DNA from: Microcystis aeruginosa NIES-843
GTDB taxonomy: Bacteria; Cyanobacteriota; Cyanobacteriia; Cyanobacteriales; Microcystaceae
Assembly (NCBI RefSeq): GCF_000010625.1
Contig: NC_010296.1
Location: 2,010,001-2,042,000 of the forward strand
Reading direction: 5' to 3'
DNA: 32,000 nucleotides
The notes below the pieces were generated by a model that was not told the DNA's origin, made no database searches, and saw only the letters and a program-made list of their open reading frames with translations. The stretch's first letter is position 1. Each line of letters opens with the position of its first letter. Below, piece by piece: positions 5,344 through 30,854 of this stretch. The translations under genes were made by a program, and so were the position numbers.

Positions 5344-5359
5344 AATTTACCTCTATATA

Positions 5360-5818: not shown

Positions 5819-5834
5819 AATTGACCTCTATATA

Positions 5835-6293
5835 TTACTCATGGTTATTAGTGGGAAACCAATCTTCATCGAGAATTTGTTCAAGGGAACCAAGGGGAAT
5901 AGCGGGGAAAGTATCGAGGGGTAATTGAGAGCGATCACTAGCATCTTTTCTAGCAAATTGATAGCATTCCTCAAAGATTTCCAAAAGATAGGGTTTGAGA
6001 CTAGGGCTATCTTTAACTTCTTTGATTATTTGTCGGCGAAAGTTTCTAATTTCCCCTTTCCAGTGACCCTCATTTCTAGCTTTTTCTCCTGTCCAGTAGG
6101 TTAGTTTCAGCAAATGTACCAGCAATTGAATCAAAAGATTTTCGATTTTGCGTTTTTCACTCCTTCCCATACTTGCTAACTCCTCCAGTAAATTATCTAA
6201 ATCTACCCGCTCAAACTGTCTGGCTTGCAGTTGATTAATAGTAGTTCTAATCCAGAGATAAAAGTCTTGTTCGTACAGAGTTTTATTTTCCAT
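5835..6293 (-). CDS. DUF29 domain protein, paralog 3
   Basis: 152 aa, same pattern. Confidence 0.8.
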   Translation of the reverse strand: MENKTLYEQDFYLWIRTTINQLQARQFERVDLDNLLEELASMGRSEKRKIENLLIQLLVHLLKLTYWTGEKARNEGHWKGEIRNFRRQIIKEVKDSPSLKPYLLEIFEECYQFARKDASDRSQLPLDTFPAIPLGSLEQILDEDWFPTNNHE

Positions 6294-12556: not shown

Positions 12557-14776
12557 AACTGCGGCAGAACTTTGAACCCACATTCCGCACCCTCAACTGT
12601 CACATAATACCAAATTTCTAAATCCATGACAGACATCCACGCTCGAATGCTTGCCAAGCCGGTGTTCGTTGTGACGCGAATAAAGAAAAATGGTGTAAGC
12701 TGTCCCCCTCCAGAGACTTGAGTAAAAATACCTAGCTGGTGAAGGTTTTCTCGGTGGCCGCTAGGGGGGTCTTGAGACCCCTAATTATGAAAAAATAGGA
12801 ATTGTTGGAAAACTGAGGCGAGTGGACTGTTCGACCATGAATCAATCAACAGAAATTGAAGTCAAAAATCTAGACCATCTGGGATTAGTAGCCGGAATTA
12901 TCGATGAAATAGGAATCGTTGAAATTATCAACGAACAAGTCTCAATTGAGCGAGGAGAAATTGTCACAGCGGGGCAAGTAGTGAAAGCAATTATCCTGAA
13001 TGGATTGGGATTTGTCTCCCGAGCCTTGTATTTATTTCCTCAATTTTTTGAAGATAAAGCAACCGAACATCTGCTGGGAGAGGGCATCGAACCCAAGCAC
13101 TTGAATGATGATAAAATTGGTCGAGTAATGGACAAACTTTATCAACTGGATGTTTCGGGTATTTTCCTACTCATCAGTTTAGCCGCCGTGAAAAAATTTG
13201 GTGTAGCAACCGAGAACTCCCATTTAGATTCGACTTCTCTATCAGTAGAAGGAGAATATAAAAAGGAATACCCAACAGTAGAAATCCTGAAATCAGGAGC
13301 AGTGGGAGAAGAAATTGAAACCAGACAACAGCCAATAAAAATTACCTACGGATACTCCCGCGACCGACGACCTGACTTAAAACAATTTATGATTGACTTA
13401 ATCGTAAGTGGGGATGGAGATGTACCTTTATTCCTGAAAGTAGGGGACGGAAATGAAGCGGACAAAGCGGTTTTTGGTCAAATCGCCCGAGAATTTAAAA
13501 AACAAGTTGACTTTGACAGTTTAATAGTCGGCGATAGCGCCCTCTATAGCAAAGAGAATTTAAAACTAATGAAAGAAATGCGTTGGTTGTCTCGAGTACC
13601 ATTAAGCATTAAAGAGGCTCAAGAGTTAGTCGATAGCATCTCAGAAAAAGAGTTAACCGATTCAGAAATACCGGGTTATTCCTGGCGGGAAACAAGCTCT
13701 AACTATGGGGGGATAGAACAAAGATGGTTGCTAGTTGAAAGTCAAGCTAGACAAGAATCAGACTTGAAAAAATTAGAGAAAAAAATCGAGCAGGAAAAGA
13801 ATTCTGCCCAAGAAAAAATCCGGCAACTATCCCGAAGAGAATTTGAGAATAGAGCGGTGGCGTTGGCGATAGCCAAAGGATTATCTGACTCCTTAAAATC
13901 TCATCAGTTAACGGAGATTAAAGTCAATCTCATTCCGCCTGAGTCCCAGGGGTCAAAACTCAAATCAAAAGACGATTTACCCTCTCAAAGCTATCAAGTT
14001 CAAGCCAAATTAGAGTTGAATTTGACCGCCATTGAGAGGCTAAAGAAACGAGCAGGACGATTCGTTTTAGCAACTAACGATTTGGAGAAACAACGATTAA
14101 GCAGTGAGGATATACTCAAAAAATATAAAGGGCAACAAGCTCCGGAAAGAGGATTTTCTTTTCTCAAAGACCCCTGCTTTTTTGCCCACAGTGTCTTTCT
14201 CAAATCTCCCCATAGAATCGAGGTCATGGCCATGCTCATGGGCTTGTGCCTGCTGGTTTATACTATTGGTCAAAGACAACTTCGTTTAAGTTTAAAACAG
14301 CAGGAGACGGGACTGAAAAATCCGTTGGGTAAGTTAACTGACCGACCGACGTTACGCTGGATATTTCAGTGCTTTCAAGGGATTCATCTCGTCCGTATTC
14401 AAGACAATCAAAAGATTAGCAACTTAACGGATGAGAGGCGCAACATTTTGAGATTTTTTCCCAAACCTTGCCAGGAATATTATCTCTTATCTTGACCAGA
14501 TGGATTGACTTCAAGGGGTGACAAAACAAAGCGAGCAACTGGAACATCTCCCCCTAGATGTTAAGTCTGATTGCCTAGTCATTCTCAACAAGCACTGTTT
14601 ATTGAGAATGACCGGGGGAACTCTGAAATTTTCGGCTTAGTTGCCGGCAGCTTGCCGCCAACTCACTCCTCTAGATAAGTATTTTGACTCACGCCCCTTC
14701 CTCTTTTGAGACGTTGTGACACTTAGGGTGCGGAATGTGGGTTTGAACAATTCTGGCGGGAAGCTGCCGCGCAGTT
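12557..14776 (+). mobile_element. IS1634-family (IS4 superfamily) insertion sequence; ends approximate
   Basis: Imperfect inverted termini: aactgcggcag...ttgaacccacattccgcaccct (12557-12593) versus agggtgcggaatgtgggtt...ctgccgcgcagtt (14725-14776), enclosing one transposase gene. Confidence 0.7.
12837..14495 (+). CDS. IS1634-family transposase
   Basis: About 552 aa. The N-terminal NLDHLGLVAGIIDEIGI motif and overall length and architecture are typical of IS1634 transposases. ATG at 12837 preferred over GTG at 12822. Confidence 0.75.
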   Translation: MNQSTEIEVKNLDHLGLVAGIIDEIGIVEIINEQVSIERGEIVTAGQVVKAIILNGLGFVSRALYLFPQFFEDKATEHLLGEGIEPKHLNDDKIGRVMDKLYQLDVSGIFLLISLAAVKKFGVATENSHLDSTSLSVEGEYKKEYPTVEILKSGAVGEEIETRQQPIKITYGYSRDRRPDLKQFMIDLIVSGDGDVPLFLKVGDGNEADKAVFGQIAREFKKQVDFDSLIVGDSALYSKENLKLMKEMRWLSRVPLSIKEAQELVDSISEKELTDSEIPGYSWRETSSNYGGIEQRWLLVESQARQESDLKKLEKKIEQEKNSAQEKIRQLSRREFENRAVALAIAKGLSDSLKSHQLTEIKVNLIPPESQGSKLKSKDDLPSQSYQVQAKLELNLTAIERLKKRAGRFVLATNDLEKQRLSSEDILKKYKGQQAPERGFSFLKDPCFFAHSVFLKSPHRIEVMAMLMGLCLLVYTIGQRQLRLSLKQQETGLKNPLGKLTDRPTLRWIFQCFQGIHLVRIQDNQKISNLTDERRNILRFFPKPCQEYYLLS

Positions 14777-14869
14777 GGGAAACGCCCAATCCCTCACCGA
14801 ACGGGGGTCGGGGAAATGGCAGGAGTACCAGTTGGAGAAATACCAACCCCTGACGTAGCTCTGCCCTTT

Positions 14870-15268
14870 TTAGAATACAAGTAAACGGTGAAAACCTTCT
14901 TGCTCAAAATGGCGATCGGTGGTTAATGCTTCATTAATATTGAACTGACGCATCAATAAAAAGCTAACTGCATCACACAAGGAATAAGTCTTATCTTGCC
15001 GTGCCATCAATAGTTTGACCGCAGCACGATGTAAAGGCTCATCTATCCAAACTGTCTCGATATCTGGATTTTCTAGCAAATCGGTGATAAATTCTAGGGT
15101 AGCTAAACGCGGGTAACGCCGAACTTGAGCTAGAGCAACTAACTCTGCTAAAACGTAACTGTGGGTGATGCTTTTACCTGCACTATCTAACAATTGGACA
15201 GCTTCTTCATGTCCTGGTTGATCACGATAGACATAGCAAAGTAACCCAGAAGTATCGAGGAGTATCAC
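14870..15268 (-). CDS. vapC: Type II toxin VapC (PIN domain ribonuclease)
   Basis: 132 aa. PIN acidic residues in the usual places (ILLDTS, LAEL, LCDAVS, TTDRHF). 4-nt overlap with the upstream small gene. Confidence 0.8.
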   Translation of the reverse strand: MILLDTSGLLCYVYRDQPGHEEAVQLLDSAGKSITHSYVLAELVALAQVRRYPRLATLEFITDLLENPDIETVWIDEPLHRAAVKLLMARQDKTYSLCDAVSFLLMRQFNINEALTTDRHFEQEGFHRLLVF

Positions 15269-15561
15269 CGATTTGATGTCTCCTCATGAGTATCTCCATA
15301 CTCTCTCCCTAAGTCAGCATCAATGCTTTCATTATCTGCTCCTGTCGGATAGCCGCTAATTGAGCCAGCGTGCGCTCGAAAGCGTTGACGTGCTGCTTCT
15401 TTTTCGGCTTCCGTGCGTTGGTCTTTAGCTTTTGTTAAGCGATACTGTCGTTCGAGGGAAGTTGTTACTAATTCTGACAGGTCGATACCTAATATTTTAG
15501 CTTGCTGTTGCAAGGCGGCATAGACTTCATCGCTCAATTCTAGGGTTAAGACTTGACTCAT
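15265..15561 (-). CDS. VapB-type antitoxin (family uncertain)
   Basis: 98 aa, coupled upstream of vapC, with a charged and probably disordered C-terminus. Confidence 0.55.
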   Translation of the reverse strand: MSQVLTLELSDEVYAALQQQAKILGIDLSELVTTSLERQYRLTKAKDQRTEAEKEAARQRFRAHAGSISGYPTGADNESIDADLGREYGDTHEETSNR

Positions 15562-15741
15562 TTGGCTGTACCTTCATTGTGGCTATTGATTAGATTAATT
15601 TCTTTTTTAACTCTTTGACCATTATAACCTCGGACATCAGCTTGTCTCTTCACAGTAGCACTGTAGGGTGGGTTAGCGACAGCGTAACCCACCGAATATT
15701 AGGAAATTGATGGTGCGTTACATTAACATTAACGCACCCTA

Positions 15742-16989
15742 CTGGACTGTTTCAGCTAAAATAGGGCAATAGCTCGAACAAGCAGAGGACATCAATCATG
15801 GGAAGAGGTCGGCGAGATAAAGTCAATCTAACAGGGGAACAAAGAGAAAACCTCGAACAAATCAGTCGTAATGGCTATGCACCAGCTAAAAAAATTCTCC
15901 ACGCTCGGATTTTGCTGATGTGTGACGAGGGAGAACAGGCGAAAAGGAAATGGACAGATGAAGAAATAGGCGAAGCTTTAGAAGTTCATAGAAATACAGT
16001 GGGACGTATTCGTCAAAGATTTCTTCAAAAAGGCGAAAAACCAGCATTAGAACGGAAATCGAGAAAAACTCCCCCCACTCCGGCAAAAGTTGATGGAGCC
16101 GCCGCCGCCCAAATCATTGCCCTGTGCTGTTCGGAGCCACCATCTGGCCGAGCCGAGTGGACAATCCGACTATTAACCTCGGAACTCAAACAAAGACAAA
16201 TTATCACCGAGATTTCCAGTCCAACGGTGTGGCGTACTCTAAAAAAAACCAATTACGCCCTTGGAAAACCCAAAGATACTGTATTCCGGAACAGGATTTA
16301 GCCCGATTTGTTGCCCAGATGGAAGTTGTCCTTGACCTGTATGGCACTCAGCCATCGGAAGAAGAACCGTTAATCGCGATGGATGAAGCATCAAAGCAAC
16401 TACTTGGAGAAGTTTACCCTCCGATACCCATGCAACCTGGACAAGATAAAAAAGAAGACTATCACTATAGTCGTGAAGGGGTTCAAGCCTTGTTCATGTT
16501 TTTTGACCCCCATCGAGGATGGAGACGGGTGAGTAACCGAGATAGTCGAACCCGAATAGATTGGGCAGAAGAAATTCGTCAATTATTGGATGTGGACTAT
16601 CCAAAGGCTCGAAAAGTCAAGCTCGTCTGTGATAATCTCAACACTCATAACATAGCCTCGCTTTATGAAGCATTTCCAGCACCCGTTGCTCATCGTTTAG
16701 CTAGAAGACTGGAAATTTATTACACACCTCGTAATGGTAGCTGGTTAAATGTAGCCGAAACTGAACTAAGCGTCTTATCGAGGCAATGTTTAGATAGAAG
16801 GATTTCTAGCAAGGAAGAACTGAAAAGGGAGATAGAAACCTGGCAAAAAGAACGTAATCAGACTGCATCTACAGTAATATGGACGTTTACGACCAGCGAT
16901 GCTAGGGTCAAGCTGAAACATCTTTATCCTGTGTTTGAGGAGGAGGAATCGGGAGAATCTATTGCACCAAATTAGCTGAAACAGTCCAC
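15742..16989 (+). mobile_element. IS630-family insertion sequence, 1248 bp, flanked by TA
   Basis: TIRs CTGGACTGTTTCAGCTAA (15742-) and TTAGCTGAAACAGTCCAC (-16989). TA on both sides (15740-41 and 16990-91), the IS630/Tc1 target duplication. Confidence 0.85.
15798..16975 (+). CDS. IS630-family transposase in two frames (orfA 15798-16301, orfB 16124-16975); needs a -1 shift on A8 at 16241-16248
   Basis: orfA ...VWRTLKK then orfB NQLRPWKTQRYCIPEQD... restores the family-typical LKKN.L+PW...+.WCIP junction. orfB carries the DDE region. Confidence 0.75.
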
Positions 16990-16998
16990 TACGAAAGC

Positions 16999-17401
16999 TT
17001 ATAAGTCATCTTCCGATAATCGAGCTATTTTCATAATTGATTTTAAAGTTCCAATTTTTAAGTCCTGATTGCGGTGTACAGGAATAGATAGAATTTTATG
17101 GTTCTTCGTTACTTGGTATGGTTTGATCGGGTGGCATAAATCGACTAAATCCTTATCTGGCAAGAGACTTAATTGATTAGCTCGTTCTAGATCGAAAACA
17201 ATTGGCAAAAATCGAAGCAATGTCTTTATATATAAGGGTTTCATCCCTTATAACCCCCCTCCATTGCATAACAAAAACCGAAGAACCAATTTTATCTTCA
17301 TCCTCCTTTTCATAAATATGGTGACTACTGGTAATTTTTTTGAGTATCCAACCTTTTTTTTCGACAATTTTACAGAGTTTTTTCCCTGATATTGATTTCA
17401 T
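16999..17401 (-). pseudogene. hicA: hicA toxin gene interrupted by a MITE
   Basis: Track ORFs 17177-17401 (N-terminal part, MKSISGKKLCKIVEKKGWILKKITSSHHIYEKEDEDKI) and 16999-17244 (C-terminal part, LSIPVHRNQDLKIGTLKSIMKIARLSEDDL) are two halves of one HicA. Removing 17100-17287 plus one 8-bp TSD leaves 207 nt, an intact 68-codon ORF. Confidence 0.85.
17100..17287. mobile_element. 188-bp MITE (TIR GGTTCTTCG / CGAAGAACC) with 8-bp TSD AATTTTAT, inserted in hicA
   Basis: Collinear with 10668-10854. Identical 8-mers at 17092-17099 and 17288-17295. Confidence 0.85.
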
Positions 17402-17601
17402 ACAGCAATTTCAATCACTTCTGACCTAGATTCAGGTTGTTTGCTTTCATTGGCAACTTCTAACCAGCCTTGTATGGCATCTTGGAGGTTATCGACAACT
17501 TCGTCCATACTATCTCCTTCTGTTATACAACCGGGCAGAGCGGGAACTTCAGCCCAGTAACCGCCTTCTTCGGCTGGATGAATAATAGCTTTGATTTTCA
17601 T
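17398..17601 (-). CDS. hicB: HicB antitoxin (UPF0150/HicB-like)
   Basis: 67 aa from the internal ATG at 17601 (MKIKAIIHPAEEGGYWAEVPALPGCITEGDSMDEVVDNLQDAIQGWLE). ATGA overlap with the hicA start. The 57-aa N-terminal extension in the track ORF has no family resemblance. Confidence 0.75.
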   Translation of the reverse strand: MKIKAIIHPAEEGGYWAEVPALPGCITEGDSMDEVVDNLQDAIQGWLEVANESKQPESRSEVIEIAV

Positions 17602-17840
17602 CAGGTTCAGAATTTTTGAAAACTTATCTTTTATTTTAATATGAATATGGAAGTTGGGTTTCCTTGCGTCAACCCAACCTACAGGCGATGCGATCACACT
17701 ATTAGATATGTAGATATGATTAGATAAGGTACAATGAAAGATGTAGATGCACCTACTTAAGCCATGAAACAAGTTCTCAAAAATATTGAGGTATCAGAGA
17801 TTCCCACACTAATCGATACATGGATAGATATTCCTGTAAA

Positions 17841-18212
17841 TTAATCGATAGTAAAAAATGTGGGATATCCCGAACGATCAGCCCCTATGGAATAATATGT
17901 ATTGACTGGAACACCATGTAAAGGTGGTATGGCTAAATAACAACGCCGGAAAGTTTTATCCAAAATAGTTTTTTGCATACATCTTTTTACCAATTTTGCG
18001 GGGATCAGGCAACTAATCCTACTAAAAGTTGCACCAGGAATACCTGGCACTATCGAAAATCTGTCATGATCATTTATACACTTATATACTTGACCAGATT
18101 GAGCTATTAAAAAGTCTTTGTTTTCACTTAAGTTAAATGTTTTAGCTTGTCGAGACACAGTTAGTCCCAATAAAGTTAATACAGCCGTTATGTATATTAC
18201 ACTTGTTTTCAT
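17841..18212 (-). CDS. Hypothetical small secreted protein
   Basis: 123 aa, N-terminal signal-like helix (MKTSVIYITAVLTLLGLTVS), 4 Cys. No family recognised. Confidence 0.4.
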   Translation of the reverse strand: MKTSVIYITAVLTLLGLTVSRQAKTFNLSENKDFLIAQSGQVYKCINDHDRFSIVPGIPGATFSRISCLIPAKLVKRCMQKTILDKTFRRCYLAIPPLHGVPVNTYYSIGADRSGYPTFFTID

Positions 18213-18249
18213 TAATGTATCTCCTCAAAGTGCGATCGCTCCCCCTCGC

Positions 18250-18380
18250 AGCCAGATTAAGCAACAACCCAACACCAAAGGCGGACAAAACAACAATACA
18301 CACTCACCCCCCCACAACTGTATTAAAAGTTACAAAATAATAAATCTTTACATTCCTCTCCCTAGCAGCGATTCACTGGG
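18250..18380 (+). repeat. Cassette-boundary repeat, copy 1
   Basis: Shares ...acaacaatacac..cacccccc..., the identical 16-mer AATAAATCTTTACATT (18339-18354) and ...ctccctag..gattcac with copies at 19203-19335 and 20225-20315. All are in the same orientation. Confidence 0.8.
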
Positions 18381-18390
18381 GACAATTGAG

Positions 18391-18579
18391 ATATTGGGAC
18401 TTAGGCGTTTTCGGTCAGCAAAAAAGGCTCAAACCATTACGGGACAAAGGGTTAACCTCGATTTATGATTTTCCTTGATATATCTGGGTTTCAGCGATTT
18501 TGGGCTTCTCGAAGTAAATCCCAAGCGGGGATTGGAGTTGAAGCTTTTCTCGATTTGTTTTTTGTCTAAGTCCCAATAT
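18391..18579. mobile_element. 189-bp MITE-like element with perfect 14-bp TIR ATATTGGGACTTAG
   Basis: atattgggacttag at 18391-18404 and ctaagtcccaatat at 18566-18579. No credible ORF inside. Confidence 0.6.
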
Positions 18580-18607
18580 TTCCTCTTTGCGAACTATAAT
18601 CCAAAAA

Positions 18608-18928
18608 TTAGTAGTGAAAAAATTCAACCAAGCGATCAGCCACTAACATTGCCATTTGTTCGTCAAGACGGCTAATTTGAGCGACGATTCGGGTTTTGTC
18701 GATCGCTCTAATTTGGTCTAAGGCAATACTACCTCGCACATTTTCTTGGTCAATCGGGATTCTGGTGGGGTATTTTTTGACTGTGCTGGTGATGGGAGCG
18801 ACGACTACTGTTCTCAACCGAGCATTAATCTCGCTAGGGGAAACAATAACACAAGGTCGGGTTTTTTGCAGTTCGGAACCCCTAGTCGGATCGAGTTCCA
18901 CTAGAACCACAGCAAATCTTTCTACCAT
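18608..18928 (-). CDS. mazF: Type II toxin MazF/PemK family endoribonuclease
   Basis: 106 aa from ATG at 18928 (MVERFAVVLVELDPTRGSELQKTRPCVIVSP...LDQIRAIDKTR), a classic PemK pattern. Overlaps the mazE stop by 7 nt. The longer track ORF start is less likely. Confidence 0.8.
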   Translation of the reverse strand: MVERFAVVLVELDPTRGSELQKTRPCVIVSPSEINARLRTVVVAPITSTVKKYPTRIPIDQENVRGSIALDQIRAIDKTRIVAQISRLDEQMAMLVADRLVEFFHY

Positions 18929-19164
18929 AGATTTTCTTGCTCGAACTCGTTTTCCACTCCTAACCAATCCTGTAACTCTGCTTCGAGCGGTTCGTCATCA
19001 AATAATTCAGCCCACCCCTCTCTCACCTTCTTTTTAGCACTCAGAATAATTTTTTTACCTTCGACTATCGCTTCGACTTCATCAGTGAGTTCGCACTGTT
19101 CCATAATCGCTTGAGGAATTGTAATTCCTTGAGAATTGCCGATTTGTACGATTTTCAGCAACAT
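18922..19164 (-). CDS. mazE: MazE/AbrB-fold (SpoVT-AbrB) antitoxin
   Basis: 80 aa. KIVQIGNSQGITIPQAIMEQ is the swapped-hairpin AbrB/MazE motif. Upstream of mazF. Confidence 0.75.
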   Translation of the reverse strand: MLLKIVQIGNSQGITIPQAIMEQCELTDEVEAIVEGKKIILSAKKKVREGWAELFDDEPLEAELQDWLGVENEFEQENLW

Positions 19165-19202
19165 TTTTGACTGCTTGGTAAATACATTGTCATTATATCA
19201 AT

Positions 19203-19335
19203 CAACCGCTTAAACAGCCCCACCCAACCCCAAAGGCAGACAACATAATAATTCACACTATCCCCATAAAGAAAGTATTTTAAGACACAATTTAATAAAT
19301 CTTTACATTTTTTCCCTAGCTTAGGGATTGACAGG
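19203..19335 (+). repeat. Cassette-boundary repeat, copy 2
   Basis: 16-mer core at 19294-19309. A 23-nt identity (ACAATTTAATAAATCTTTACATT) with copy 3. Confidence 0.8.
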
Positions 19336-19534
19336 GAAAGTTGTTTTCTCCTGTTTTACCCCTTCTTAGGCGACCTATCCTCATTCCGTGAGATATTGTG
19401 ACGCAGTATGTCCTATTCGCCTTTGCCTTCTCCCTTGACGGACTCTCAACTCGATCGCTAACCAAATTAAGCCCGATTACCTCCCATCAACCAGATGATA
19501 AACTGGGGATAAGAGACCTTATCAAGGCATCAGC

Positions 19535-19834
19535 ATGACCACCAACGTAGCGAAAACTCAATGGCAGTATTTAGAGAAACGTCCTCATCCTTGGCGACAA
19601 CAGCTTTGTTTTCAAGGCAGGAGGCTGAAAGCTTTTGATGTCTGGTCAGATATGATTGTCAATGACATGACTCCTCAAGAAGCAGCCCTTAATTGGGAGT
19701 TACCCCTGGCTGCCATCTACGAAGCAATTGACTACTGCGAGGCTAATCAGCAGCTACTCAAGCAAGAAGCGGAAGAAGAACGCCACCGTCTGGAAGCAAA
19801 GGGGATTAGTATTGAGCCTAAGATTATTGCTTGA
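19535..19834 (+). CDS. DUF433-like putative antitoxin
   Basis: 99 aa. GRRLKAFDVWSDMIVNDMTPQEAALNWELPLAAIYEAIDYCEAN resembles DUF433. Directly precedes a DUF5615 gene. Confidence 0.55.
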   Translation: MTTNVAKTQWQYLEKRPHPWRQQLCFQGRRLKAFDVWSDMIVNDMTPQEAALNWELPLAAIYEAIDYCEANQQLLKQEAEEERHRLEAKGISIEPKIIA

Positions 19835-20171
19835 TGAGGACTCGCAATCCCAACTTCTGGTTAAGTTACTTACGGCTGCTGATCATGACGTACTGACGAT
19901 CAATGAAATTGGTTTGGCTGGCTGCACAGATAATGTCGTACTTGACTATGCTATACAGGAAAATCGGATTCTGCTAACTCATAACTGCGATGACTTTGAA
20001 GAGTTGCACCAAGCGAATCCAAACCATTCGGGGCTCTTCGCGGTTTACCGTAACGCTAACCTCTTAAAAAATATGGGCTTCAAGGCAATTGTCAAGGCAA
20101 TCGCCAATCTCGAAACTGCTAACGTCCCCCTTGCTAATCAGTTCATCTCCCTGAACCACTGGAACTATTAA
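19827..20171 (+). CDS. DUF5615 PIN-like putative toxin
   Basis: Family-like sequence begins at LLDEDSQSQLLVKLLTAADHDV...ILLTHNCDDF. I place the start at TTG 19827, overlapping the upstream stop. The track ATG at 19728 would overlap the antitoxin gene by 107 nt. Confidence 0.6.
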   Translation: MLDEDSQSQLLVKLLTAADHDVLTINEIGLAGCTDNVVLDYAIQENRILLTHNCDDFEELHQANPNHSGLFAVYRNANLLKNMGFKAIVKAIANLETANVPLANQFISLNHWNY

Positions 20172-21270: not shown

Positions 21271-22605
21271 ATGAGAGATTCCCTATCGAGCCATCTAAGA
21301 GTACAACAACATTGCCTCAATCAAGTTAAATTAGCCGTGAGAAAGCAGGGCTTTAGCAGTCAACGCTCCTTAGCTAAAGAAGCTGAATTTAGTCTGGCTA
21401 TTGTCAGTAACTTCCTGACCGGTAAACCGGTAGAAAAAGCCACTTTTGCCCAAATTTGTCGTCGATTATGCCTCGACTGGCAAGAAATCGCCGCCCTGAA
21501 TGTTCAGCTAACAGCACCCCCTCAAGACAAAATTCTGGTTAATTCTCCATCCAAGAGCGAAAAATTGGACACATTACCCCCCTATCCCAATGGGGCAGTT
21601 CCCCTTGGTTCCCCATTTTATTTAGAACGTCTTCCCCTCGAAGAACAGATAAGGCAGGAAATCAAGAAACCGGGGGCTTTAGTGCGGATAAAAGCCCCGA
21701 AAGAAATGGGCAAAACTTCCCTACTTTTGAGAATGCTCGATTTTGCCAAACAGCAAGGCTACCGCACGGTGAGTTTGAACTTAGAACAGGTGGACCAGAC
21801 GATTTTGGCTGATTTAAACCAATTTTTGCGCTGGTTGTGTGCCAATGCCGCCCGTCAACTACAGTTAAAACCGCAATTAGATGAGTATTGGGATGAGGAT
21901 TTAGGCAGCAAGATTAGCTGTACGGTTTACATTCAAGACTATCTGCTTGAATCGATTACCGCCCCCATTGTCCTCGCTCTCGATGAACTTAATCAGATTT
22001 TTGAACATCCCCAGGTGGCCAAGGATTTTTTACCGCTGCTGCGTTCTTGGTACGAAGAAGCCAAAACCCTACCTATTTGGCAAAAACTCCGTCTTATCGT
22101 CGTCCATTCCACGGAAATTTATGTTCCCCTGCAGCTCAATCAATCCCCCTTTAACGTGGGATTCCCCGCACAGTTAAGTCATTTTAGTCTTGAGGAGGTA
22201 TTGCAATTAGCCCAACGTTATCAACTCACCTGGGAAAATCAGGAAAAAGTCAAACAATTGATGGAGTTAGTGGGAGGACACCCGGCTTTGGTACAAACTG
22301 CCCTCTACTATCTCAGTCGGGAGGAAATAACCATGACGCAAATATTAACCAGTGCCACCTCCGTCACGGGGATTTATGCCCATCACCTGCGACGCCATTG
22401 GGCGGTATTAGAACAACAGCCTGAACTAGCAAAAGCCCTCGATCGGGTGATGAGCGCGGTGGAACCCGTACAATTAGACCCAATTCTCGCTTACAAACTC
22501 AGCAGTATGGGGCTGCTCAAACAATCAGGAGATAAAGTAGTACCAGGCTATGAATTGTATCGACGCTATTTTTTAGAGGTGAAATCCTCTATCAGTTATC
22601 AGTAA
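21271..22605 (+). CDS. HTH + AAA_35 (AAA-like domain) STAND-type P-loop NTPase
   Basis: 444 aa. N-terminal HTH-like segment (SQRSLAKEAEFSLAIVSNFLTGKP). Then SPFYLERLPLEEQIRQEIKKPGALVRIKAPKEMGKTSLLLRM (Walker A at nt 21706-21720), Walker B IVLALDELNQI and GGHPALVQ, the pattern I associate with Pfam AAA_35. Confidence 0.7.
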   Translation: MRDSLSSHLRVQQHCLNQVKLAVRKQGFSSQRSLAKEAEFSLAIVSNFLTGKPVEKATFAQICRRLCLDWQEIAALNVQLTAPPQDKILVNSPSKSEKLDTLPPYPNGAVPLGSPFYLERLPLEEQIRQEIKKPGALVRIKAPKEMGKTSLLLRMLDFAKQQGYRTVSLNLEQVDQTILADLNQFLRWLCANAARQLQLKPQLDEYWDEDLGSKISCTVYIQDYLLESITAPIVLALDELNQIFEHPQVAKDFLPLLRSWYEEAKTLPIWQKLRLIVVHSTEIYVPLQLNQSPFNVGFPAQLSHFSLEEVLQLAQRYQLTWENQEKVKQLMELVGGHPALVQTALYYLSREEITMTQILTSATSVTGIYAHHLRRHWAVLEQQPELAKALDRVMSAVEPVQLDPILAYKLSSMGLLKQSGDKVVPGYELYRRYFLEVKSSISYQ

Positions 22606-22872: not shown

Positions 22873-24705
22873 ATGAATATGTCAATCAAAGATACTGTCC
22901 AAAATACTGTCAACGTTAGTAATTTTAGTCGCTCGCAACTAGGTCAACCGGATGAGAACAATTTATATCAAGCAGTCGCCACAATTACCGAGGGACGTTG
23001 GCCAGAAAATCTGTCGGGATACGTTTTTATCGTCTGTCCTTTTCATAGAAAAAATGACCGTCATTTGTTCTCTGGCGAGGGTGTAATTATTAAATGGGAC
23101 TTGCAAGGGAAAAATAATCAAGTTAATGTTTACAGTAAGAAACTGAAAACCTGGGATAGTTTTTGGCGAAAAGTTTTACCGATATTTAATATTAGTCAAG
23201 CCACTTTTCCTGCCGTGGTCAGCATTTTGGGTTGTTCAGAAATAGCGAATACTGCTATGATTAAACTAGAAAAAGTTGCCGAAGATCAACAACTAGAAGA
23301 AACCAGATTAATTCTCACCGCCGATGCGGGACGTTACTGGGAAGTGGACCCCGTTTCCCTTGATACTATCACTCCGATTGGTTATTTTGACCAACATATT
23401 GTTTCCGTGCCTTTATCTTTTTTCCCAGTCCTAGAAAATACCGCTCATCCCTTCTACGACAAAAAAACCAAAGAATTTATCACCTGTGAATTAAAGCTAA
23501 AACTTGTATCGGGAGGTATGTTAAAAGACTTAGATAAATCGGCGTATATTGTTCTTTGGGATCAACAAAAACAACTTAAACCTTGGAAACTACAGGGAGC
23601 TATCCTCGATGGTAGTCCCCATTCGGTCATCGTCACCGAGGATTATATCATGATTCCCGATATGCCTTTTCAGATGGGAGTAGCCAAACTATTAGGTATC
23701 AGAATTAAGCCGGAAGAAACCTATCCGAAAACTCAAATTTATCTGGTTAAACGTCAAGACCTCAAGGAAGAAGAAACCACCGTTCCCTCGCAATTAATTA
23801 CCTTCAATGGCGACAGTTATCACTTCCTTTGTAATTACCATAGTACCAACGGTCAAATTCAGCTGGTGGCCATCCAAAACGCCACTATTAGTTTAACCGA
23901 AGCGATCGAAAAAGACGATATCCAACATTTTACCGGTCAGGGTTATCCTCCCGAATACCACGGCATTCCCTGGATGTTTTCCTTTGACCCCGGAGTGCTG
24001 CGCAAAGTGGTTATCGAAGATGCCAGGGTGATGAGCGAACAAGCTTTCATCCATCCGGGGTGGTTCTCTACCACTCTCTACACCGCCGACCCGCGGGAAT
24101 CGGAACAGGGATACAGCGCTATTTATCAGGTTTATGCCGGTTATGTGCGCGAATTAATCTGTCGTCGTCAGTATATGGATTTTCGCGACCAAAGTAATCG
24201 CATCCTCAGGGATGCCGAACTTCCCTGTCATGACTTGCCCTCGGTATTAGCCAAGGTTTCCTTCGATAAGGATTGGAATCAGTTAACTGAACAGATTAGC
24301 CAAGAAAAAAAAGCCAGTAATACTCATGTATCACATTTAGGTCGGGGACTACTGGATTTTTATGTTTGTCCCGATGGCTATATTTTAGATAGCATTCAGT
24401 TTATTCCCCAAGAACAGGGCTATCTATTTACGACGGTTTTAACCCCGACCAGAGTATTAGAAGCTTGGTTATTTAACCCTGACAATCTCAAGGACGGACC
24501 GATTGCTAAACTGAGTTTGCCGGAAGATGTTCACTTTGGTTTTACCTTGCATTCCGAGTATTTCGAGCAAGTGCTGCCTTCTCCCCGTCCTTCCGTCTCA
24601 CAGGTAAATCGAGTCCTGTCAGCCTTGCGGAGTCTTGTTTTAGTTCCCGTAGAATTTTTCTTGGGGAGACCCGCAGCCATTTACAATCGCCAAGTAAAAA
24701 AATGA
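22873..24705 (+). CDS. Divergent carotenoid oxygenase (RPE65/CCD) family-like protein
   Basis: 610 aa from ATG 22873; the track uses TTG 22855, which lies in repeat-derived sequence. Candidate iron ligands: H192 (TAHPFYD), H250 ([16 protein letters not shown]), H317 (SYHFLCNY), H560 (FTLHSEY). Motif contexts and the 58/67-aa spacings resemble AHPK.D, HDFAITENY and FHH.NA in known CCDs. Confidence 0.6.
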
Positions 24706-27700
24706 TTGTTCTCAACGGATACGACATTCTTGCCCAAATCTACGAAAGTGTTAACTCAGAAGTCTATCGGGCCATTCGCATCGCCGATAATCAACCGGTT
24801 ATGCTCAAAATCCTCAAGCAAGAATATCCAACCGCACAAGAACTAACCCACTACAAACAGGAGTATAAAACCATCTGCGGCCTGAACTTCGAGGGGGCGA
24901 TTAAAGCCTATGGTTTAGAAACCTACCGCAGAACTCCCGTGATTATTTTGGAAGATTTCGGGGGTATATCCTTAAAAAAATGGCTAGAGGGCAAACCCCT
25001 GGCCTTAAGGGACTTTTTAAGCCTTGCACCCCGAATAGTGGCTAATTTAGAGAAAATTCACAACGCCAAGGTTATTCACAAAGATATTAATCCTGCCAAT
25101 ATAGTTCTTAACCCCGAAACCGGACAAATTAAAATCATCGATTTTGGCATTGCCAGCGTCCTGCGGCGGGAAAATCCGGGGCTAAAAAATCCCAACGTCC
25201 TTGAGGGGACTTTAGCCTATATTTCTCCGGAACAAACCGGACGGATGAATCGCAGTCTCGATTACCGCACGGATTTTTATTCCTTGGGCGTTAGCTTCTA
25301 CGAACTTCTCACCGGACAATTACCTTTTCGGGCTAAAGATGCTTTGGAATTAGTTCACTGTCATCTGGCAAAACAACCTCTGGAGATTAATAGTCTCGTC
25401 AGGGAGAAAATTCCCCCGGTGGTGGAGGCAATCATCAGGAAACTGATGGCTAAAACCCCCGAGGAACGATACCAAAGTGCCTATGGTATTCGGGCAGATT
25501 TAGAAGAATGTTTAAGACAACTAGAAACAACGGGTAAAATTGAGGATTTTGTCATCGCTGGGCAAGATCTAGCCAATCAGTTCCAAATTCCCCAAAAACT
25601 CTACGGTAGGGAGGCGGAAATCGCCACTCTCCTCACTGCTTTTCAACGGGTAGCCACCGCAGATAAAAACTCCTCTCACACCGAACTGATGCTAGTTACG
25701 GGTTATTCTGGCATGGGTAAAACCACCCTGGTTAGGGAAATTTACCAGCCAATTACTGAAAAACGCGGCTTTTTTATCTCCGGTAAATTTGACCAATTTC
25801 AGCGCGATACTCCCTACGCTGCCGTGGTTAGCGCTTTGACTCATCTCGTCAAGCAACTTTTGGGGGAAAGTCAACCACAACTGGAACTATGGCGACAAAA
25901 ACTCCTCAAGTCTTTGGGGGCGAATGCACGGGTTATTATTGATGTGATTCCTGAACTAGAATTAATTATCGGTCCACAACCAGAGGTGTTACAATTAGGA
26001 GCGATCGCTACTCAAAATCGCTTTAATTTAGTCTTTAAAAATTTTATTCGGGTCTTTTGTTCCCCGGAACACCCCTTAGTCATCTTTCTCGATGATTTGC
26101 AATGGGCAGACTTGGCTAGTCTCCAGTTAATAGAATTAATTATGCTCGATGGCGATATGGACTATTTGTTTTTAATTGGCTCCTATCGCAGTAATGAAAT
26201 TAATTCCACCCATCCCCTAACCGCTACTCTCGATAAATTAGAGCAGGGGGGCATAATTATCAATCAAGTTATTTTAAGACCTCTAGGTCCTGCACAGGTC
26301 AATCAGTTAATTGCTGACACCTTAAATCATTCACCAGAATATGTGCAATCTTTGGCCGCTTTAGTCTGGCAAAAAACCCACGGTAATCCTTTTTTTGTCA
26401 ATGAATTTCTCAAAACTATCTACTGGGAAAATTTGCTATTTTTCCAACTGGAGCAGGAAAAAACCACTAAAACCGACAATAATAGGGGTTATTGGCAATG
26501 GCATCTCGGTCAAATTCAAAGGATTGGTAGTACCGATAATCTGATTCAATTTATGGTCGGTAAAATGCAGAAATTGCCCCCCGAAACCCAGGAAATTTTA
26601 AGTTTAGCAGCTTGTCTTGGGCCAGAGTTTAATTTATATAGTCTGGCAGTAATCTCTGAAAAATCACCTCCAGAACTTTTACCAATTTTAACTTCTAGTA
26701 GCGAAGCTGGTTTAATTATTCCCCTCTCAGAATTGGATGAACAATTACTGATTCAAGAATATAAATTTGCTCATGATCGCATTCAACAAGGAGCTTACGC
26801 TCTCATCGAAGACAGCAAAAAATCTTTAATTCATTTAAAAATTGGTCGCCTCCTTTGGCAGCATACATCTGTCAACGAATTATCGGAAAAGATTTTTAAA
26901 ATAGTCGATCATCTCAATCTTGGTTATCGACTAATTAGCGAGGAAAAAGAACGAGAGTCAGTGGCTAACTTGAATTTACTAGCAGCCCAAAAGGCAAAAG
27001 CCGCTAATGCCCAAACTGGAGCCTTAAAATATATTAAAATCGCTCAAAAACTTCTCAAAAAATCCAGCTGGAAAAATAACTATCAACTGACTTTAAATAT
27101 TTATTCTGAAGCCACAGAAATCGCCTATTTAAGTGGGAACTTTGAGCAGATGCAACGCTGGGCTAATCTCGTATTAAAACAGGCAAAAACAACCCTAGAT
27201 AAGGTTAAAGTTTATGAAGTCATCATCGAAGCCTATCACGCCCAAAATCAAGAACTAAAAGCGGTAGAAATTGGTTTATCCGTCCTCAAAAGCCTAGATT
27301 TCGAGATTCCTGAATCCTTACAATCATCAGATATTCAAAAAGAACTAACTAAAACCAGACAAAAATTAGCGGGTAAAAATATCAAAGATTTAATTAATTT
27401 ACCGCCGATAAATGAAGAAGAAAAATTAGCAATCATGAAGATAGCAAGTGCCATATTTTCTCCTGTTTATATTGCCGCCCCTCATCTCTTACCCATCCTA
27501 GTATCAAAACAGGTTAACTTATCAATTGAATACGGCAATAGTTATCTAGCGGCTTTTACTTATGTCAATTATGGCTTAATTCTTTGTGGTCTTTTAGAAG
27601 ATTGGGAAACGGGTTATCAATTTGGACGATTAGCTTTAAACATTGCTGATAAATTTCATGCCAAAGCCCTGATGCCGAAAATAATTGCCGTCTTTTCCGC

Positions 27701-30700
27701 CACTATTAGTATCTGGAAAGAACCGATTAAAAATTCCCTGTCCTTGTTAAAATCTTCCTATCAAACCGGTTTAGAAATGGGCGATCTCTACTACGGAACA
27801 ACCTGCGCCTATCTTTACTGTTTTCATTCCGCCTTTATCGGACAGGAATTAACCGAATTAGCCCAAGAAATAGCTAACTATGATCTGGCTTTTGTTAAGC
27901 TCAAACAAGAAAACCCCCGCAACTATCTAAAAATCTATGGTCAAACAGTTTTAAATCTGCTGAGGCACTCGGAAAATCCCGGTCATTTAGAAGGACAGTA
28001 CTATCAAGAAACTCTTATGTTACCGTACCATCTAGAGGCTAATGATCTCTTCGGTCTCTGTGCTTTATTTGTTAATAAATTATACCTTTGTTATCTATTT
28101 GGACAGTACGAACCAGCCATTGAAAATGCTAACCAAGCCCAAAATTATCTAGGGGGAGCTACCGCTACTTTATTGATTCCTCTGCATAATTTCTATGATT
28201 CCCTCGCCCATTTAGCTATTTATAATCATCTGGATAATGACCAAAAACAGCAAGTATTAGAACGGGTGACGAATAATCAGAAAAAGCTACGGGAATGGGC
28301 TAATCAAGCACCCCCTAACTATCTCCATAAATTTTATTTAGTGGCAGCGGAAAAGGATCGGGTGCAGGAATCCTATCTAGAAGCCATAGAAAACTACGAT
28401 CTAGCCATCGCTAAAGCCAAGGAAAATGAATACATTAATGAAGAGGCACTGGCTAACGAACTAGCGGCGAAATTCTATCTCGATTGGGGTAAAGTAAAAA
28501 TTGCCAAAACCTACATCAATGAAGCTGCTTATCTCTATTCTCTTTGGGGAGCAACAGCTAAAGTCAAAGATATAGAAAGCCGTTATTCTCAGTTAATGGT
28601 CAATAATTATGGTTCCAATTCCCTGACCGAAACTAGGAGAACTTCCACCAGAAAAAATTCAGCTAGTCATTCGGGAGAACTGTTAGATTTAGCCACGATT
28701 ATGAAGGCCTTCCAAGCCATTTCTAGCGAGATAGTTTTAGATAAATTACTCGCCACCCTGATGAAAATTCTCATCGAAAATGCTGGGGCGCAGCTGGGCT
28801 ATCTTATCCTAGAAAGCGGCGGACAACTATTGATCGAAGCCTCCGGTTCGGTGCAGGAAGATGGGGTGACAGTCTTTAAATCTAATGCCATCGAAGAACA
28901 TCTTCCCGTCTCAATTATTAACTATGTAGCCCGGAGCGGTCAAACCGTTCTTAATGACGATGCTGCCCATGAGGGCAATTTTAGCAATGATTCCTATATT
29001 AAAACCCATCAAACCAAATCCCTGCTCTGTTCGCCCCTCCTCGACCAAGGACAACTGCGGGGAATTGTCTATCTAGAAAATAATCTCACCGTCGGGGCTT
29101 TTACCCAAGAAAGATTGGAAGTGCTGCAACTGCTCTCCAGCCAAGCGGCGATCGCAATTACTAACGCCAAACTCTACGCCGAAATCAAAGCCAAACAGAG
29201 ACAACTAGCGCAATTTTTAGAAGCGATGCCAGTGGGGGTATTCGTCCTCGATGCTGGCAGTCAACCCTATTATGCCAATCAAACCGCCCAAGAGATTTTA
29301 GGCAAAGAGATAGTTAATATCACCACGGCTAATCAGTTGGGGGAAACCTATCAGTTATATCAAGCTGGAACCGATCGATTGTATCCCACAGAATACCATC
29401 CGATTGTCCGAGCTTTAAGGGGGGAAAAAAACACGATGGATGATCTAGAAATTCACCAAGGAGAGAAGATTATTCCCCTAGAAGTGTATGCCACGCCCGT
29501 TTTTGACGAAAAAGGAGAAATTATCTATGCGATCACCGCTTTTACCGATATTACCGAACGAAAACAGGCGGAAGCGGAACGGATTCGCTTTACCGAAGAA
29601 TTAGCCGAGTATAGCCGCACCCTAGAACAGAAAGTGCAGGAGCGCACCCTAGAACTCAGCCAAACCCTAGAAATTCTCAAGGCCACCCAAGCAGAATTAC
29701 TGTTTGAAAACGAACTCCTCAAAACTAACGAACAATCTAGCACCTTTGACTACCAAGTGGGGGGCAGTTTACCCATGGATGCCCCCACCTACGTGGTCCG
29801 CGCCGCCGACCGTTATCTCTATAAAGCCCTCAAACGGGGCGATTTTTGCTATGTTCTCAATCCCCGTCAAATGGGTAAGTCTAGTTTAATGGTACGCATG
29901 ATCGACCACCTCCAACACGAGGGGGTCTGTTGCGCTCCCATTGATTTAACCCGCATCGGCAGCGAAAATGTCACTCCCGACCAATGGTACAAGGGGATAG
30001 CCTTCGAGTTAGGGCGACGTTTTGGACTGCTCAAAAGGGTCAATCTCAAAGCTTGGTGGCAAGAACGGGAAGATGTCTCGGCAGTACAGCGCTTGGGCGA
30101 ATTTATCGAAGAAGTGTTATTGCTGGAAGTGGGGATCGTGGAAGGTTCTCCCCCGAAACCGATCGCGATTTTTATCGATGAAATTGATAGCGTTTTGGGC
30201 TTAAATTTCGCGGTTAATGACTTTTTTGCCCTGATTCGTTCCTGCTATAACCAGCGTGGTTTTAACCCGCTCTATCGGCGTTTGACCTTCGCTTTCTTCG
30301 GTGTTGTCACCCCCTCCGATTTAATTACCGACCACCAAATCACTCCTTTTAATATCGGTCATTCGATTCAATTGGAGGGTTTTAAGGAACACGAAGCCCA
30401 GCCTTTACTGCGCGGATTGGCCGAGAAAGTTAGTAACCCGCAAACTGTCTTAAAAGAAGTCTTTGCTTGGACAAACGGTCAACCTTTTCTGACCCAAAAA
30501 CTCTGTCAGTTAATTCGCACCGCCGCCTCGCCGATTCCCCCCAATGGTGAGGCCTCCTGGATTGAGGACTTGGTACAGAAGAAGATCATTGACAATTGGG
30601 AGGCTCAGGATGAACCGGAACATCTGCGGACTATTCGCGATCGGCTTCTCAACAGTCATCGCTCCCAGTTGCTCCTGAAACTCTATGAACGGATTTTAAG

Positions 30701-30854
30701 GGAAAAAGAGGTAATTTCCGAGGATAGCCCTCCAGAAAAAGAGTTACTTTTATCGGGGTTAGTGATCAAAGACCAAGGCCGGCTGCTGGTCCATAATCCC
30801 ATCTATCAAGCAATCTTTAACCCCCATTGGCTGGCCCTGGCAAAATCAACCTAA
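24702..30854 (+). CDS. 2050-aa multidomain protein: Ser/Thr kinase + AAA_16 NTPase + helical/TPR-like region + GAF + PAS + coiled coil + C-terminal AAA_35 NTPase
   Basis: Kinase: [12 protein letters not shown] (H126/D128), DFG (D147), SPEQ. AAA_16: Walker [10 protein letters not shown] (nt 25701-27), Walker [15 protein letters not shown] about nt 28680-29190. PAS about 29215-29560 (..[14 protein letters not shown]). Coiled coil to about 29740. AAA_35: [50 protein letters not shown] (Walker A nt 29871-82), Walker [16 protein letters not shown] overlap with the upstream gene. Confidence 0.75.

Follow-up and report, generated by a model that had tools for sequence, protein, structure and literature searches.

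An HstK-like giant kinase of Microcystis aeruginosa carries an AAA_35 NTPase in the place of its histidine-kinase core

Giant kinases of the HstK type are characteristic of cyanobacteria, and little is known of the partners that act downstream of them. Here we analyze a window of 32,000 nt from the genome of Microcystis aeruginosa NIES-843 (contig NC_010296.1, positions 2010001–2042000 of the forward strand; all positions below are those of the window), which holds a cassette of three genes in the order helix-turn-helix (HTH)-AAA_35 protein, RPE65-like oxygenase and giant kinase (Table 1). The giant protein has 2,050 residues arranged as Pkinase, AAA_16, a helical region, GAF, PAS, a signaling helix (S-helix) and AAA_35. 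An earlier reading of the letters alone (the original prediction) had proposed that the histidine-kinase output expected at the end of such a protein is replaced by an AAA_35 nucleoside triphosphatase (NTPase).

In an alignment of 26 orthologues the catalytic residues of Pkinase are kept (K36, HKD 126–128, N133, DFG 147–149 and SPE 175–177), and the AAA_16 domain has a Walker A motif GYSGMGKT and a Walker B motif DDLQWAD, with G334, G337, G339, K340 and D464 invariant. The helical region of approximately 850 residues that follows, up to about nt 28700, has no Pfam assignment. Along the gene the G+C content falls from about 45% in the kinase and AAA_16 parts to 37–38% in the helical middle (26–28 kb) and returns to 46–48% in the PAS and AAA_35 end, that is, 45–48% at the ends.

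No histidine-kinase core is found at the C-terminus. HisKA and HATPase_c give no Pfam match at E ≤ 0.01, either with the whole protein or with its last 484 residues (aa 1567–2050) alone, and a tblastn search of the six frames of the window with a genuine HstK histidine-kinase core (S-helix, HisKA and HATPase_c) matches only the signaling helix (nt 29577–29717) and the end of the GAF domain. Likewise, the giant protein has no Response_reg match in Pfam, tblastn of a receiver (REC) domain against the window returns nothing, and NCBIfam gives nothing further for the C-terminus. Because Pfam assigns AAA_35 to this region and the histidine-kinase core retrieves only the helix and the GAF end, positions 29560–30854 consist of a signaling helix plus a complete AAA_35 module. 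The predicted replacement is thus borne out, as is the stated lack of an H-box and of N, G1 and G2 boxes, a degenerate histidine kinase included.

Table 1 Features of the window (positions in nt; strand and basis as far as assigned)
Feature	Position	Strand	Basis or remark
Giant signaling protein	24702–30854	+	One uninterrupted frame, 2050 aa
Ser/Thr protein kinase domain, aa 18–258	24753–25475	+	Pfam Pkinase, 125 bits
AAA_16 NTPase, aa 299–492	25596–26177	+	Pfam AAA_16, 146.9 bits
GAF domain, aa 1346–1486	28737–29159	+	Pfam; last segment common to true HstK-type kinases
PAS domain, aa 1506–1622	29217–29567	+	Pfam PAS_4
S-helix, aa 1626–1673	29577–29720	+	ERT signature, BLAST alignment, AlphaFold2 helix
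AAA_35 NTPase, YQVGGSLP subtype, aa 1688–2040	29763–30821	+	Pfam AAA_35
Partner ('gene 1'), HTH-AAA_35	21271–22605	+	Pfam AAA_35, 495.6 bits
RPE65/carotenoid-cleavage-oxygenase-like gene, 610 aa	22873–24705	+	Pfam RPE65, 81.5 bits, divergent
IS4-like transposase	12822–14495		
PIN gene	14870–15268		
IS630-like transposase	15798–16975		Two overlapping open reading frames
HicB-like gene	17398–17772		
MazF/PemK gene	18608–18967		
DUF5615 gene	19728–20171		
DUF433 and DUF5615 genes	3651–4372		Adjoining the DUF29 paralogues
Three tandem DUF29 paralogues	4879–6293	-	152–154 aa each, two Pfam-confirmed
Molybdopterin-binding oxidoreductase gene and cytochrome P450 gene	6337–9032	-	Adjoining

The AAA_35 match scores 114.7 bits (cut-off 27) and covers profile positions 4–330 of 331, so that the full P-loop module of the original prediction is there together with the Walker motifs that it quoted. 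Walker A reads NPRQMGKSS (aa 1720–1728, nt 29859–29885), Walker B reads AIFIDEID (aa 1822–1829, nt 30165–30188) and a GxP motif, GQP, lies at nt 30477–30485; the N-terminal motif of the module is a 17-residue stretch (letters not shown). G1725, K1726, S1727, D1826 and E1827 are invariant in the 26 orthologues and in 44 homologues of the module, G1926 and P1928 are invariant in the 26 orthologues, and in the orthologue alignment the C-terminal module is the best-conserved stretch of the giant protein. Judged by the invariant Walker A, Walker B and GxP motifs, the module appears to be a competent NTPase. The protein ends at aa 2050, 10 residues past the AAA_35 match, and has no C-terminal repeat sensor (WD40, TPR or LRR).

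An AlphaFold2 model of aa 1640–2050 as a monomer (mean predicted local distance difference test score (pLDDT) 81.6) has a long N-terminal helix (aa 1641–1673), then a P-loop alpha/beta core and a helical domain with the GQP motif. At the C-terminus it predicts a winged helix at aa 1974–2030 (nt 30621–30791, order helix-helix-helix-strand-strand), in agreement with the winged-helix-like tail read from the letters. Using Foldseek against the PDB, the module matches first the archaeal ATPases PAB2304 (2qen) and SSO1545 (2fna), then ORC/Cdc6 proteins, then Avs4 and the plant NLR RPP1, with E values of 1e-9 to 1e-5 and TM-scores of 0.34–0.54; the ORC/Cdc6 matches (E 1e-9 to 1e-6, TM-score 0.4–0.54) are a likeness in fold only. 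In the PDB no sequence homologue of the module is found beyond trivial RecA P-loop matches. The model would place the module at the border between ORC/Cdc6 and STAND proteins. Hence, of the claim that it is a STAND NTPase, 'STAND-like' is a reasonable label, given the GxP motif, the winged helix, the NLR and Avs fold matches and the WD40-bearing relatives described below, although the archaeal PF01637-type ATPases and ORC/Cdc6 rank higher as structural matches.

The helix in front of the module carries an ERT signature at aa 1647–1649 (nt 29640–29648), in which R and T are nearly invariant, and LKATQAEL at aa 1659–1666. Its aa 1626–1672 align with the helix that precedes the H-box of an HstK-type kinase (E 1e-6). 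The same elements recur in the 83 proteins with a YQVGGSL motif in the fetched loci, 74 of which show an ERT-like triplet in the 60 residues before the motif and 70 of which contain LKATQ. The ERT signature defines the S-helix, a switch element of approximately 40 residues between sensor and output domains, known before histidine kinases, cyclases, PP2C phosphatases, GGDEF domains and NtrC-like AAA+ ATPases; AAA_35 is not among the S-helix outputs listed there (PMC1592074). The 'unusual signaling logic' of the original prediction is therefore unusual in the ATPase family used and not in principle, since NtrC-like AAA+ proteins are a precedent for an ATPase behind an S-helix.

A fusion of this kind could also be made by a frameshift, a misassembly or a recent pseudogenizing deletion. 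We found nothing in favor of such an origin, the only irregularity being the varying G+C content along the gene. The identical 2050-aa product is present on four contigs from at least three separate public sequencing runs. A search with the full protein listed 120 clusters of approximately 1,900–2,120 aa that are 47–95% identical to the query, nearly all covering 97–100% of it and three PAS-less ones approximately 74%. They carry PF14516 (AAA_35) together with Pkinase, AAA_16, GAF and, in most, PAS, with the sole exception of P0171 (1,615 aa, without PF14516), and more than 100 of the listed clusters are full-length orthologues (100% coverage, 50–95% identity) from several cyanobacterial orders. 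The Microcystis cluster, at 95% identity, has 440 member sequences, and the other named sources are Xenococcaceae, Hyella, Waterburya, Myxosarcina, Microcoleus, Phormidium, Chroococcopsis, Nostoc punctiforme and Calothrix. At the DNA level, tblastn against the GTDB species, each represented by one genome, gave at least 593 stretches that encode the module; the best 79 form our locus set, which is not a random sample. Full-length genes among these 79 loci belong to Microcystis, Pleurocapsa, Chamaesiphon, Symploca, Nostoc, Chlorogloeopsis, Trichodesmium, Lyngbya and others, and the exact architecture extends across Microcystis, Pleurocapsales, Chamaesiphon, Nostocales and Oscillatoriales-type genomes. 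Carriers of the fused form include Chlorogloeopsis fritschii PCC 6912 (L038), and Nostoc punctiforme NIES-2108 has an orthologue (P0201). With catalytic motifs invariant and the same gene in many genera, a frameshift or assembly join is ruled out, and we regard an artefact of any of these kinds as practically out of the question. The architecture from Pkinase to AAA_35 is conserved and widespread and no isolated oddity.

The relationship of the parts to other proteins is apparent from a locus of Scytonema NIES-4073 in which, by Pfam, a Pkinase-AAA_16-GAF-HisKA-HATPase_c gene is followed by a REC-PAS-AAA_35 gene. By BLASTP, aa 1–1508 of the window protein are 49% identical to aa 6–1533 of the Scytonema HstK-type kinase, in line with the HstK-like body of the original prediction, and aa 1495–2046 are 67% identical to aa 166–727 of the Scytonema regulator; the PAS domain of the window protein is homologous to the PAS domain of REC-PAS-AAA_35 response regulators. 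Open reading frames were called for all 79 loci and compared with segments of the window proteins. The split arrangement was found in eight Nostocales loci (L028, L033, L034, L037, L043, L045, L050 and L052), with a kinase of approximately 1,800–1,830 aa that has no module and, 363–1,841 bp downstream, a gene of approximately 730 aa that has it; both Pfam architectures were confirmed in L043. LKATQ begins at aa 1552 in the HstK-type kinase, 25 residues before the phospho-accepting His at aa 1577, and at aa 1659 in the window protein, where AAA_35 follows in place of the DHp/CA core. The window protein equals an HstK-type kinase minus its histidine-kinase core plus the regulator minus its REC domain, and is thus apparently a short-circuited form in which the His-Asp phosphorelay (histidine-kinase core and REC) is skipped. 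In neighbor-joining trees built from the N-terminal body or from the module, histidine-kinase-ended, AAA_35-ended and other architectures interleave, which suggests repeated fusion and fission.

As summarized from Phalip et al. 2001 in PMC2853384 and PMC2442094, the HstK family comprises the dual Ser/Thr-His kinases Anabaena HstK, Pkn30/Pkn44 and Pkn41/Pkn42. Lacking the histidine-kinase core, the giant protein stands outside the family as defined. Another departure, a variant in which a cyclase replaces the histidine kinase, is known (PMC2853384) and also occurs among our loci: in a Spirulina sp. metagenome-assembled genome (L021 3–7049), 205 bp separate a giant kinase of the form Pkinase-AAA_16-GAF-guanylate-cyclase from a sensor-type AAA_35 gene truncated at the end of the contig. 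Proteins that join a cyclic-nucleotide (cNMP)-binding domain to AAA_35 exist elsewhere (P0008) and may hint at second-messenger coupling. A third coupling mode from a cyclase-ended kinase to a cNMP-AAA_35 protein is unsupported, however: the cut gene of L021 has no cNMP domain and the contigs with cNMP-AAA_35 genes are too short to reveal their neighborhoods.

The unit of S-helix and module is found behind many inputs. A search with aa 1603–2050 gave thousands of matches at approximately 63–77% identity, every named source being cyanobacterial, and the architectures include REC-PAS-AAA_35 (~727 aa, very common in Nostocales), REC-AAA_35, GAF-AAA_35, GAF-PAS-AAA_35, cNMP-binding-AAA_35 and DUF3365/HAMP-AAA_35. 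The loci add PAS-GAF-AAA_35 and two hybrid kinases, dCache-HAMP-HisKA-HATPase_c-REC-PAS-AAA_35 and AmtB-HisKA-HATPase_c-REC-AAA_35. Whatever the input, the similarity begins well before the Pfam match, with a 27-residue stretch, a gap of about 15 aa and a 17-residue stretch common to all. The S-helix plus YQVGGSLP-type AAA_35 is a general modular output unit of cyanobacteria, and the idea that the replacement is special to one protein has to be given up: it is a conserved family, and the unit stands behind REC, GAF, PAS, cNMP, HAMP and hybrid histidine-kinase-REC inputs.

The module also occurs without such a sensor in front. In a library of representatives at 50% identity, the module retrieves 4,304 clusters at E ≤ 1e-30, and in many of them the AAA_35 subtype is N-terminal and followed by a long C-terminal region; WD40 propellers occur in 13 of the 43 representatives sampled, and one of the 43 (P0361) combines CHASE2 with three AAA_35 modules in tandem. 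With AAA_35 N-terminal and WD40 C-terminal in these representatives, the YQVGGSLP subtype also exists in the classical STAND layout. Elsewhere it shares a chain with the second, canonical AAA_35 subtype, in genes at L067 15899–18100 (minus strand), L073 2742–5606 and L074 21580–23856, one of them with a cyclase in between, and in five clusters of approximately 750 aa (P0305, P0318, P0346, P0348 and P0353). In the myxobacterium Hyalangium versicolor (L069 1804–23450), two giant Pkinase-type proteins are accompanied by a 1224-aa protein with the sensor subtype of AAA_35 and WD40, whose gene overlaps a TIR-AAA_35 gene in an arrangement that resembles a sensor/executor pair.

The canonical subtype is represented in the window by the partner gene. 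Its product has a small XRE-like HTH (~aa 13–73), a disordered linker (aa 78–101) and a canonical AAA_35 (aa 105–435) with a Walker A motif GKT and a GGHP motif. The HTH is matched weakly by HTH_26 and HTH_31 (E 0.05–0.08); homologues are named 'XRE-family HTH' by the Joint Genome Institute, and some have PF01381 or PF13560. The AlphaFold2 model (pLDDT 80.5) has a confident N-terminal helical bundle, and its Foldseek matches (2qen, ORC/Cdc6, Roq1, CED-4, RPP1 and MalT) indicate the same fold as the module. The two AAA_35 regions are homologous over their full length (hhalign probability 100%, E 3e-69), at 23% identity and with Pfam scores of 114.7 versus 495.6 bits, which agrees with the predicted difference in subtype between the giant protein and gene 1.

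The same three genes are found in other Microcystis assemblies, in a Pleurocapsales-like genome (partner downstream on the other strand) and in Calothrix NIES-22, amid YcaO, radical-SAM, lipoxygenase and peroxidase genes. M. aeruginosa and M. novacekii have another cassette made of these three gene types but without PAS (L030 7878–17055 and L032), in which an RPE65-like gene is followed by a Pkinase-AAA_16-GAF-AAA_35 gene (1913 aa) and, 3 bp further downstream, by a canonical AAA_35 gene on the opposite strand; mic1879 and mic1015 of Microcystis PCC 7806, reported as 'HstK-like' (PMC2442094), may be candidates for the two AAA_35-ended genes. Among loci flanked by 5 kb or more on either side, the distance to a canonical AAA_35 gene is at most 10 kb in 21 of 26 fused kinase loci (at most 500 bp in eight), 4 of 7 split systems and 3 of 7 stand-alone sensor-AAA_35 genes, and an RPE65-like gene adjoins in five, four and none of them, respectively. 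As a rough guide, we estimate that 50 such genes in a 7-Mb genome would place one within 20 kb by chance in about 13% of cases, which is our own estimate and not a background count.

Taken together, we propose that an HstK-type sensor kinase is here wired, through a PAS domain and an S-helix of the histidine-kinase type, to a sensor-gated NTPase switch that engages the AAA_35 partner of its locus, a reading to which we give slightly more credence than to its opposite. A ligand or redox signal would be received at the GAF and PAS domains, possibly modulated by the kinase and AAA_16 parts, and, as in other S-helix proteins, would alter the S-helix coiled coil of a parallel dimer. By analogy with AAA+ and STAND switches, this change would gate the nucleotide state or the oligomerization of the ORC/Cdc6- and STAND-like module. 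Going by context only, the activated module would engage the canonical AAA_35 partner, here the HTH-AAA_35 protein, in a hetero-oligomer, and the N-terminal domain of the partner would deliver the output. In this operon the partner would, by the same token, most likely act by binding DNA and controlling transcription, perhaps that of the co-transcribed genes for the RPE65-like oxygenase and the kinase.

The predicted winged helix at aa 1974–2030 and the presence of DNA-binding ORC/Cdc6 proteins among the best fold matches would also fit an autonomous output, in which the module is itself the effector and uses its own winged helix for ATP-dependent binding to DNA or another target (cf. ORC/Cdc6 and MalT), and the HTH-AAA_35 protein is an independent regulator. 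Many sensor-AAA_35 genes have no canonical partner nearby, and a module that is 65–77% identical across orders is compatible with a conserved, fixed target. Nevertheless, an effector acting alone leaves unexplained the recurrent fusions of both subtypes, the association in 21 of 26 neighborhoods and the split of accessory domains, with sensors on one subtype and effectors on the other, and we consider it unlikely.

This division of labor, the neighborhoods and the fusions are the reasons for proposing that the two AAA_35 subtypes act together. The N-terminal domain of the partner varies: it is an HTH in most loci, CHAT in three, TIR in one and a cyclase in one, and one partner orthologue carries PF26355 (HTH_VMAP-M9); the vWA-MoxR/VMAP paper, relevant through PF26355, contains no discussion of AAA_35. 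A wider reading, which we offer tentatively and regard as possible at best, is that cyanobacteria and some myxobacteria possess a signal-output system built from paired AAA_35 NTPases, of which we found no published description and in which the YQVGGSLP subtype would be gated by His-Asp phosphorylation, GAF or PAS ligands, cyclic nucleotides or kinase fusion and would then nucleate or activate a canonical AAA_35 with an HTH, TIR, CHAT or cyclase effector. If true, this would be the logic of NLR pairs wired into two-component and Ser/Thr-kinase signaling, and in this operon the trigger could be a product of the oxygenase, whose gene is translationally coupled to that of the kinase.

The CHAT and TIR domains on partners in other loci also raise the possibility of an NLR-like conflict or cell-death system, with the paired AAA_35 proteins as sensor and executor of an immune module and the giant kinase sensing infection or damage. 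The fold matches to Avs4, RPP1, Roq1 and CED-4 and the WD40-bearing relatives of classical STAND layout are in keeping with it, as is a window rich in toxin-antitoxin genes and insertion sequence (IS) elements. However, the partner carries only an HTH here and in most loci, and PADLOC-DB v2 recognizes neither of the AAA_35 proteins nor the oxygenase, yielding only generic kinase-domain matches. Moreover, the family takes its inputs from classical sensors of the environment and of second messengers (REC, GAF, PAS, cNMP, dCache and AmtB) and is highly conserved instead of rapidly diversifying, so that we rate a role in conflict as quite improbable.

A regulatory or scaffold role would reverse the direction, with AAA_35 as an input or docking site for the Ser/Thr kinase or its substrates and the HTH-AAA_35 protein as one candidate substrate. 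The conservation of all catalytic residues of the kinase speaks for it, as do the Ser/Thr-containing linker EQSSTF between helix and NTPase and the proximity of the partner, which correlates with the giant kinase (21 of 26 fused versus 3 of 7 stand-alone loci). Yet the module is the sole non-sensor domain of the kinase-less REC-PAS-AAA_35, GAF-AAA_35 and cNMP-AAA_35 proteins, and its downstream position is the output position in S-helix proteins (PMC1592074). We hold such a role to be distinctly improbable.

Several points weigh against the sensor-gated switch with an AAA_35 partner. The presence of a nearby partner follows the giant kinase no less closely than it follows the AAA_35 module, and a syntenic HTH protein might be no more than a local transcription factor; five of the 26 fused loci have no partner within 10 kb and only three of the seven stand-alone genes have one (four have none), so that the pairing is frequent and not obligatory. 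The loci are the 79 best matches, which is a sampling caveat, and the trees are neighbor-joining only, too weakly resolved for counting events, for their direction or for dating the fusion by phylogeny. A simple a/d count gave no clear heptad register for the linker, and the S-helix assignment therefore rests on the ERT signature and the homology to the histidine-kinase helix. In the AlphaFold2 model, which is monomeric, aa 1661–1695 with the nearly invariant YQVGGSLP motif have a pLDDT below 50. The HTH of the window's partner is assigned from weak Pfam matches and homologue annotations, ATPase competence is read from motifs, and we infer both the partner engagement and the S-helix dimer.

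The remaining gene of the cassette, the RPE65-like oxygenase, overlaps the kinase gene in an ATGA at 24702–24705 that joins its stop to the kinase start, an arrangement of translational coupling. Carotenoid-cleavage oxygenases typically have a four-His iron centre. Exactly four His residues of the oxygenase in the window (H192, H250, H317 and H560) are invariant among 11 homologues encoded beside related kinases, and it is probably an active oxygenase, as far as its residues tell; a PDB sequence search with it gave no match at 1e-3. That its product is the signal sensed by the GAF and PAS domains is speculation. In loci of Microcystis, Pleurocapsales, Symploca, Chlorogloeopsis and Scytonema the gene immediately before that of the kinase is RPE65-like, and the RPE65-like stretch is sometimes part of proteins of approximately 1,450 aa (L043 and L050). 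Like the window with its P450 gene, the surroundings of orthologous kinase loci (L007 and L008) contain genes for P450, lipoxygenase, DyP-type peroxidase and vanadium-haloperoxidase-like proteins. A scan of the 20–32 kb part of the window found 32 promoter-like sites against a shuffle mean of 22.0 (standard deviation 4.2), only a modest excess, and terminators below the shuffle mean, so that the scan carries little information. Directly upstream of the cassette, positions 12822–20171 are a stretch of mobile elements and addiction modules, and the other assigned genes of the window are given in Table 1.

HstK-type kinases are thus tied repeatedly to one uncharacterized NTPase, by direct fusion, by an adjoining receiver-containing regulator and through hybrid kinases, and the bloom-former Microcystis carries two such cassettes. 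In the literature searched, which leaves most subscription journals outside, we found no paper on the function of PF14516 or on this architecture, the family receiving only a passing mention in a sigma-factor survey, and no published description of an AAA_35-ended HstK variant or of its biochemical output. The logic from sensor to S-helix to ATPase is known, whereas AAA_35 as an output of two-component and S-helix signaling, with a likely paired partner, is undescribed. Should the module prove to be a sensor-gated switch acting through an effector AAA_35 that it recruits, two-component and S-helix signaling would gain another class of output, and classical bacterial signaling would be bridged to NLR/STAND-type assemblies. 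The natural split and fused versions offer a testable system, with phosphotransfer in Scytonema-type loci and direct coupling in Microcystis.

Among known systems, the giant protein is a member of the Pfam AAA_35 family (PF14516) and neither an enhancer-binding protein nor a response regulator nor a catalogued defense system. With the HstK family it shares the homologous N-terminal ~1,500 residues (49% identity), a signaling helix alike up to LKATQ and an interleaved position in the tree, but it has a PAS domain and an AAA_35 NTPase instead of HisKA and HATPase_c. NtrC-type enhancer-binding proteins have the same order of N-terminal sensor or receiver, helical linker and AAA+-class ATPase. The ATPase of the window protein, however, belongs to another clade, has its own winged helix instead of a Fis-type HTH and is paired with a second AAA_35 protein; no Pfam or NCBIfam match to Sigma54_activat covers the C-terminal module, the GAFTGA loop itself not having been searched for.

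The STAND, NLR and Avs proteins resemble the module in a P-loop with an hhhhDE Walker B motif, a GxP motif in the next helical domain and a winged helix, and Foldseek finds Avs4, RPP1, Roq1, CED-4 and MalT; relatives of the same subtype have a C-terminal WD40 domain, and partners have an N-terminal TIR, CHAT or HTH. The window protein differs in that its sensor is N-terminal, linked through the S-helix, and in that it has no C-terminal repeat array, and a pairing of subtypes is what we infer for it. In its layout the pair recalls a sensor and its helper among paired NLRs. ORC/Cdc6 and the archaeal PF01637-type ATPases (2qen and 2fna) are the best structural matches of both AAA_35 proteins and have the same series of ATPase, lid and winged helix, but TM-scores are only 0.45–0.58, there is no sequence homology beyond the P-loop and the context here is signal transduction instead of replication. 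Finally, the S-helix-AAA_35 unit is, as in two-component response regulators, the output of a REC domain in the split loci and hybrid kinases, whereas the window protein has neither REC nor a histidine-kinase core and bypasses the phosphorelay by fusion.

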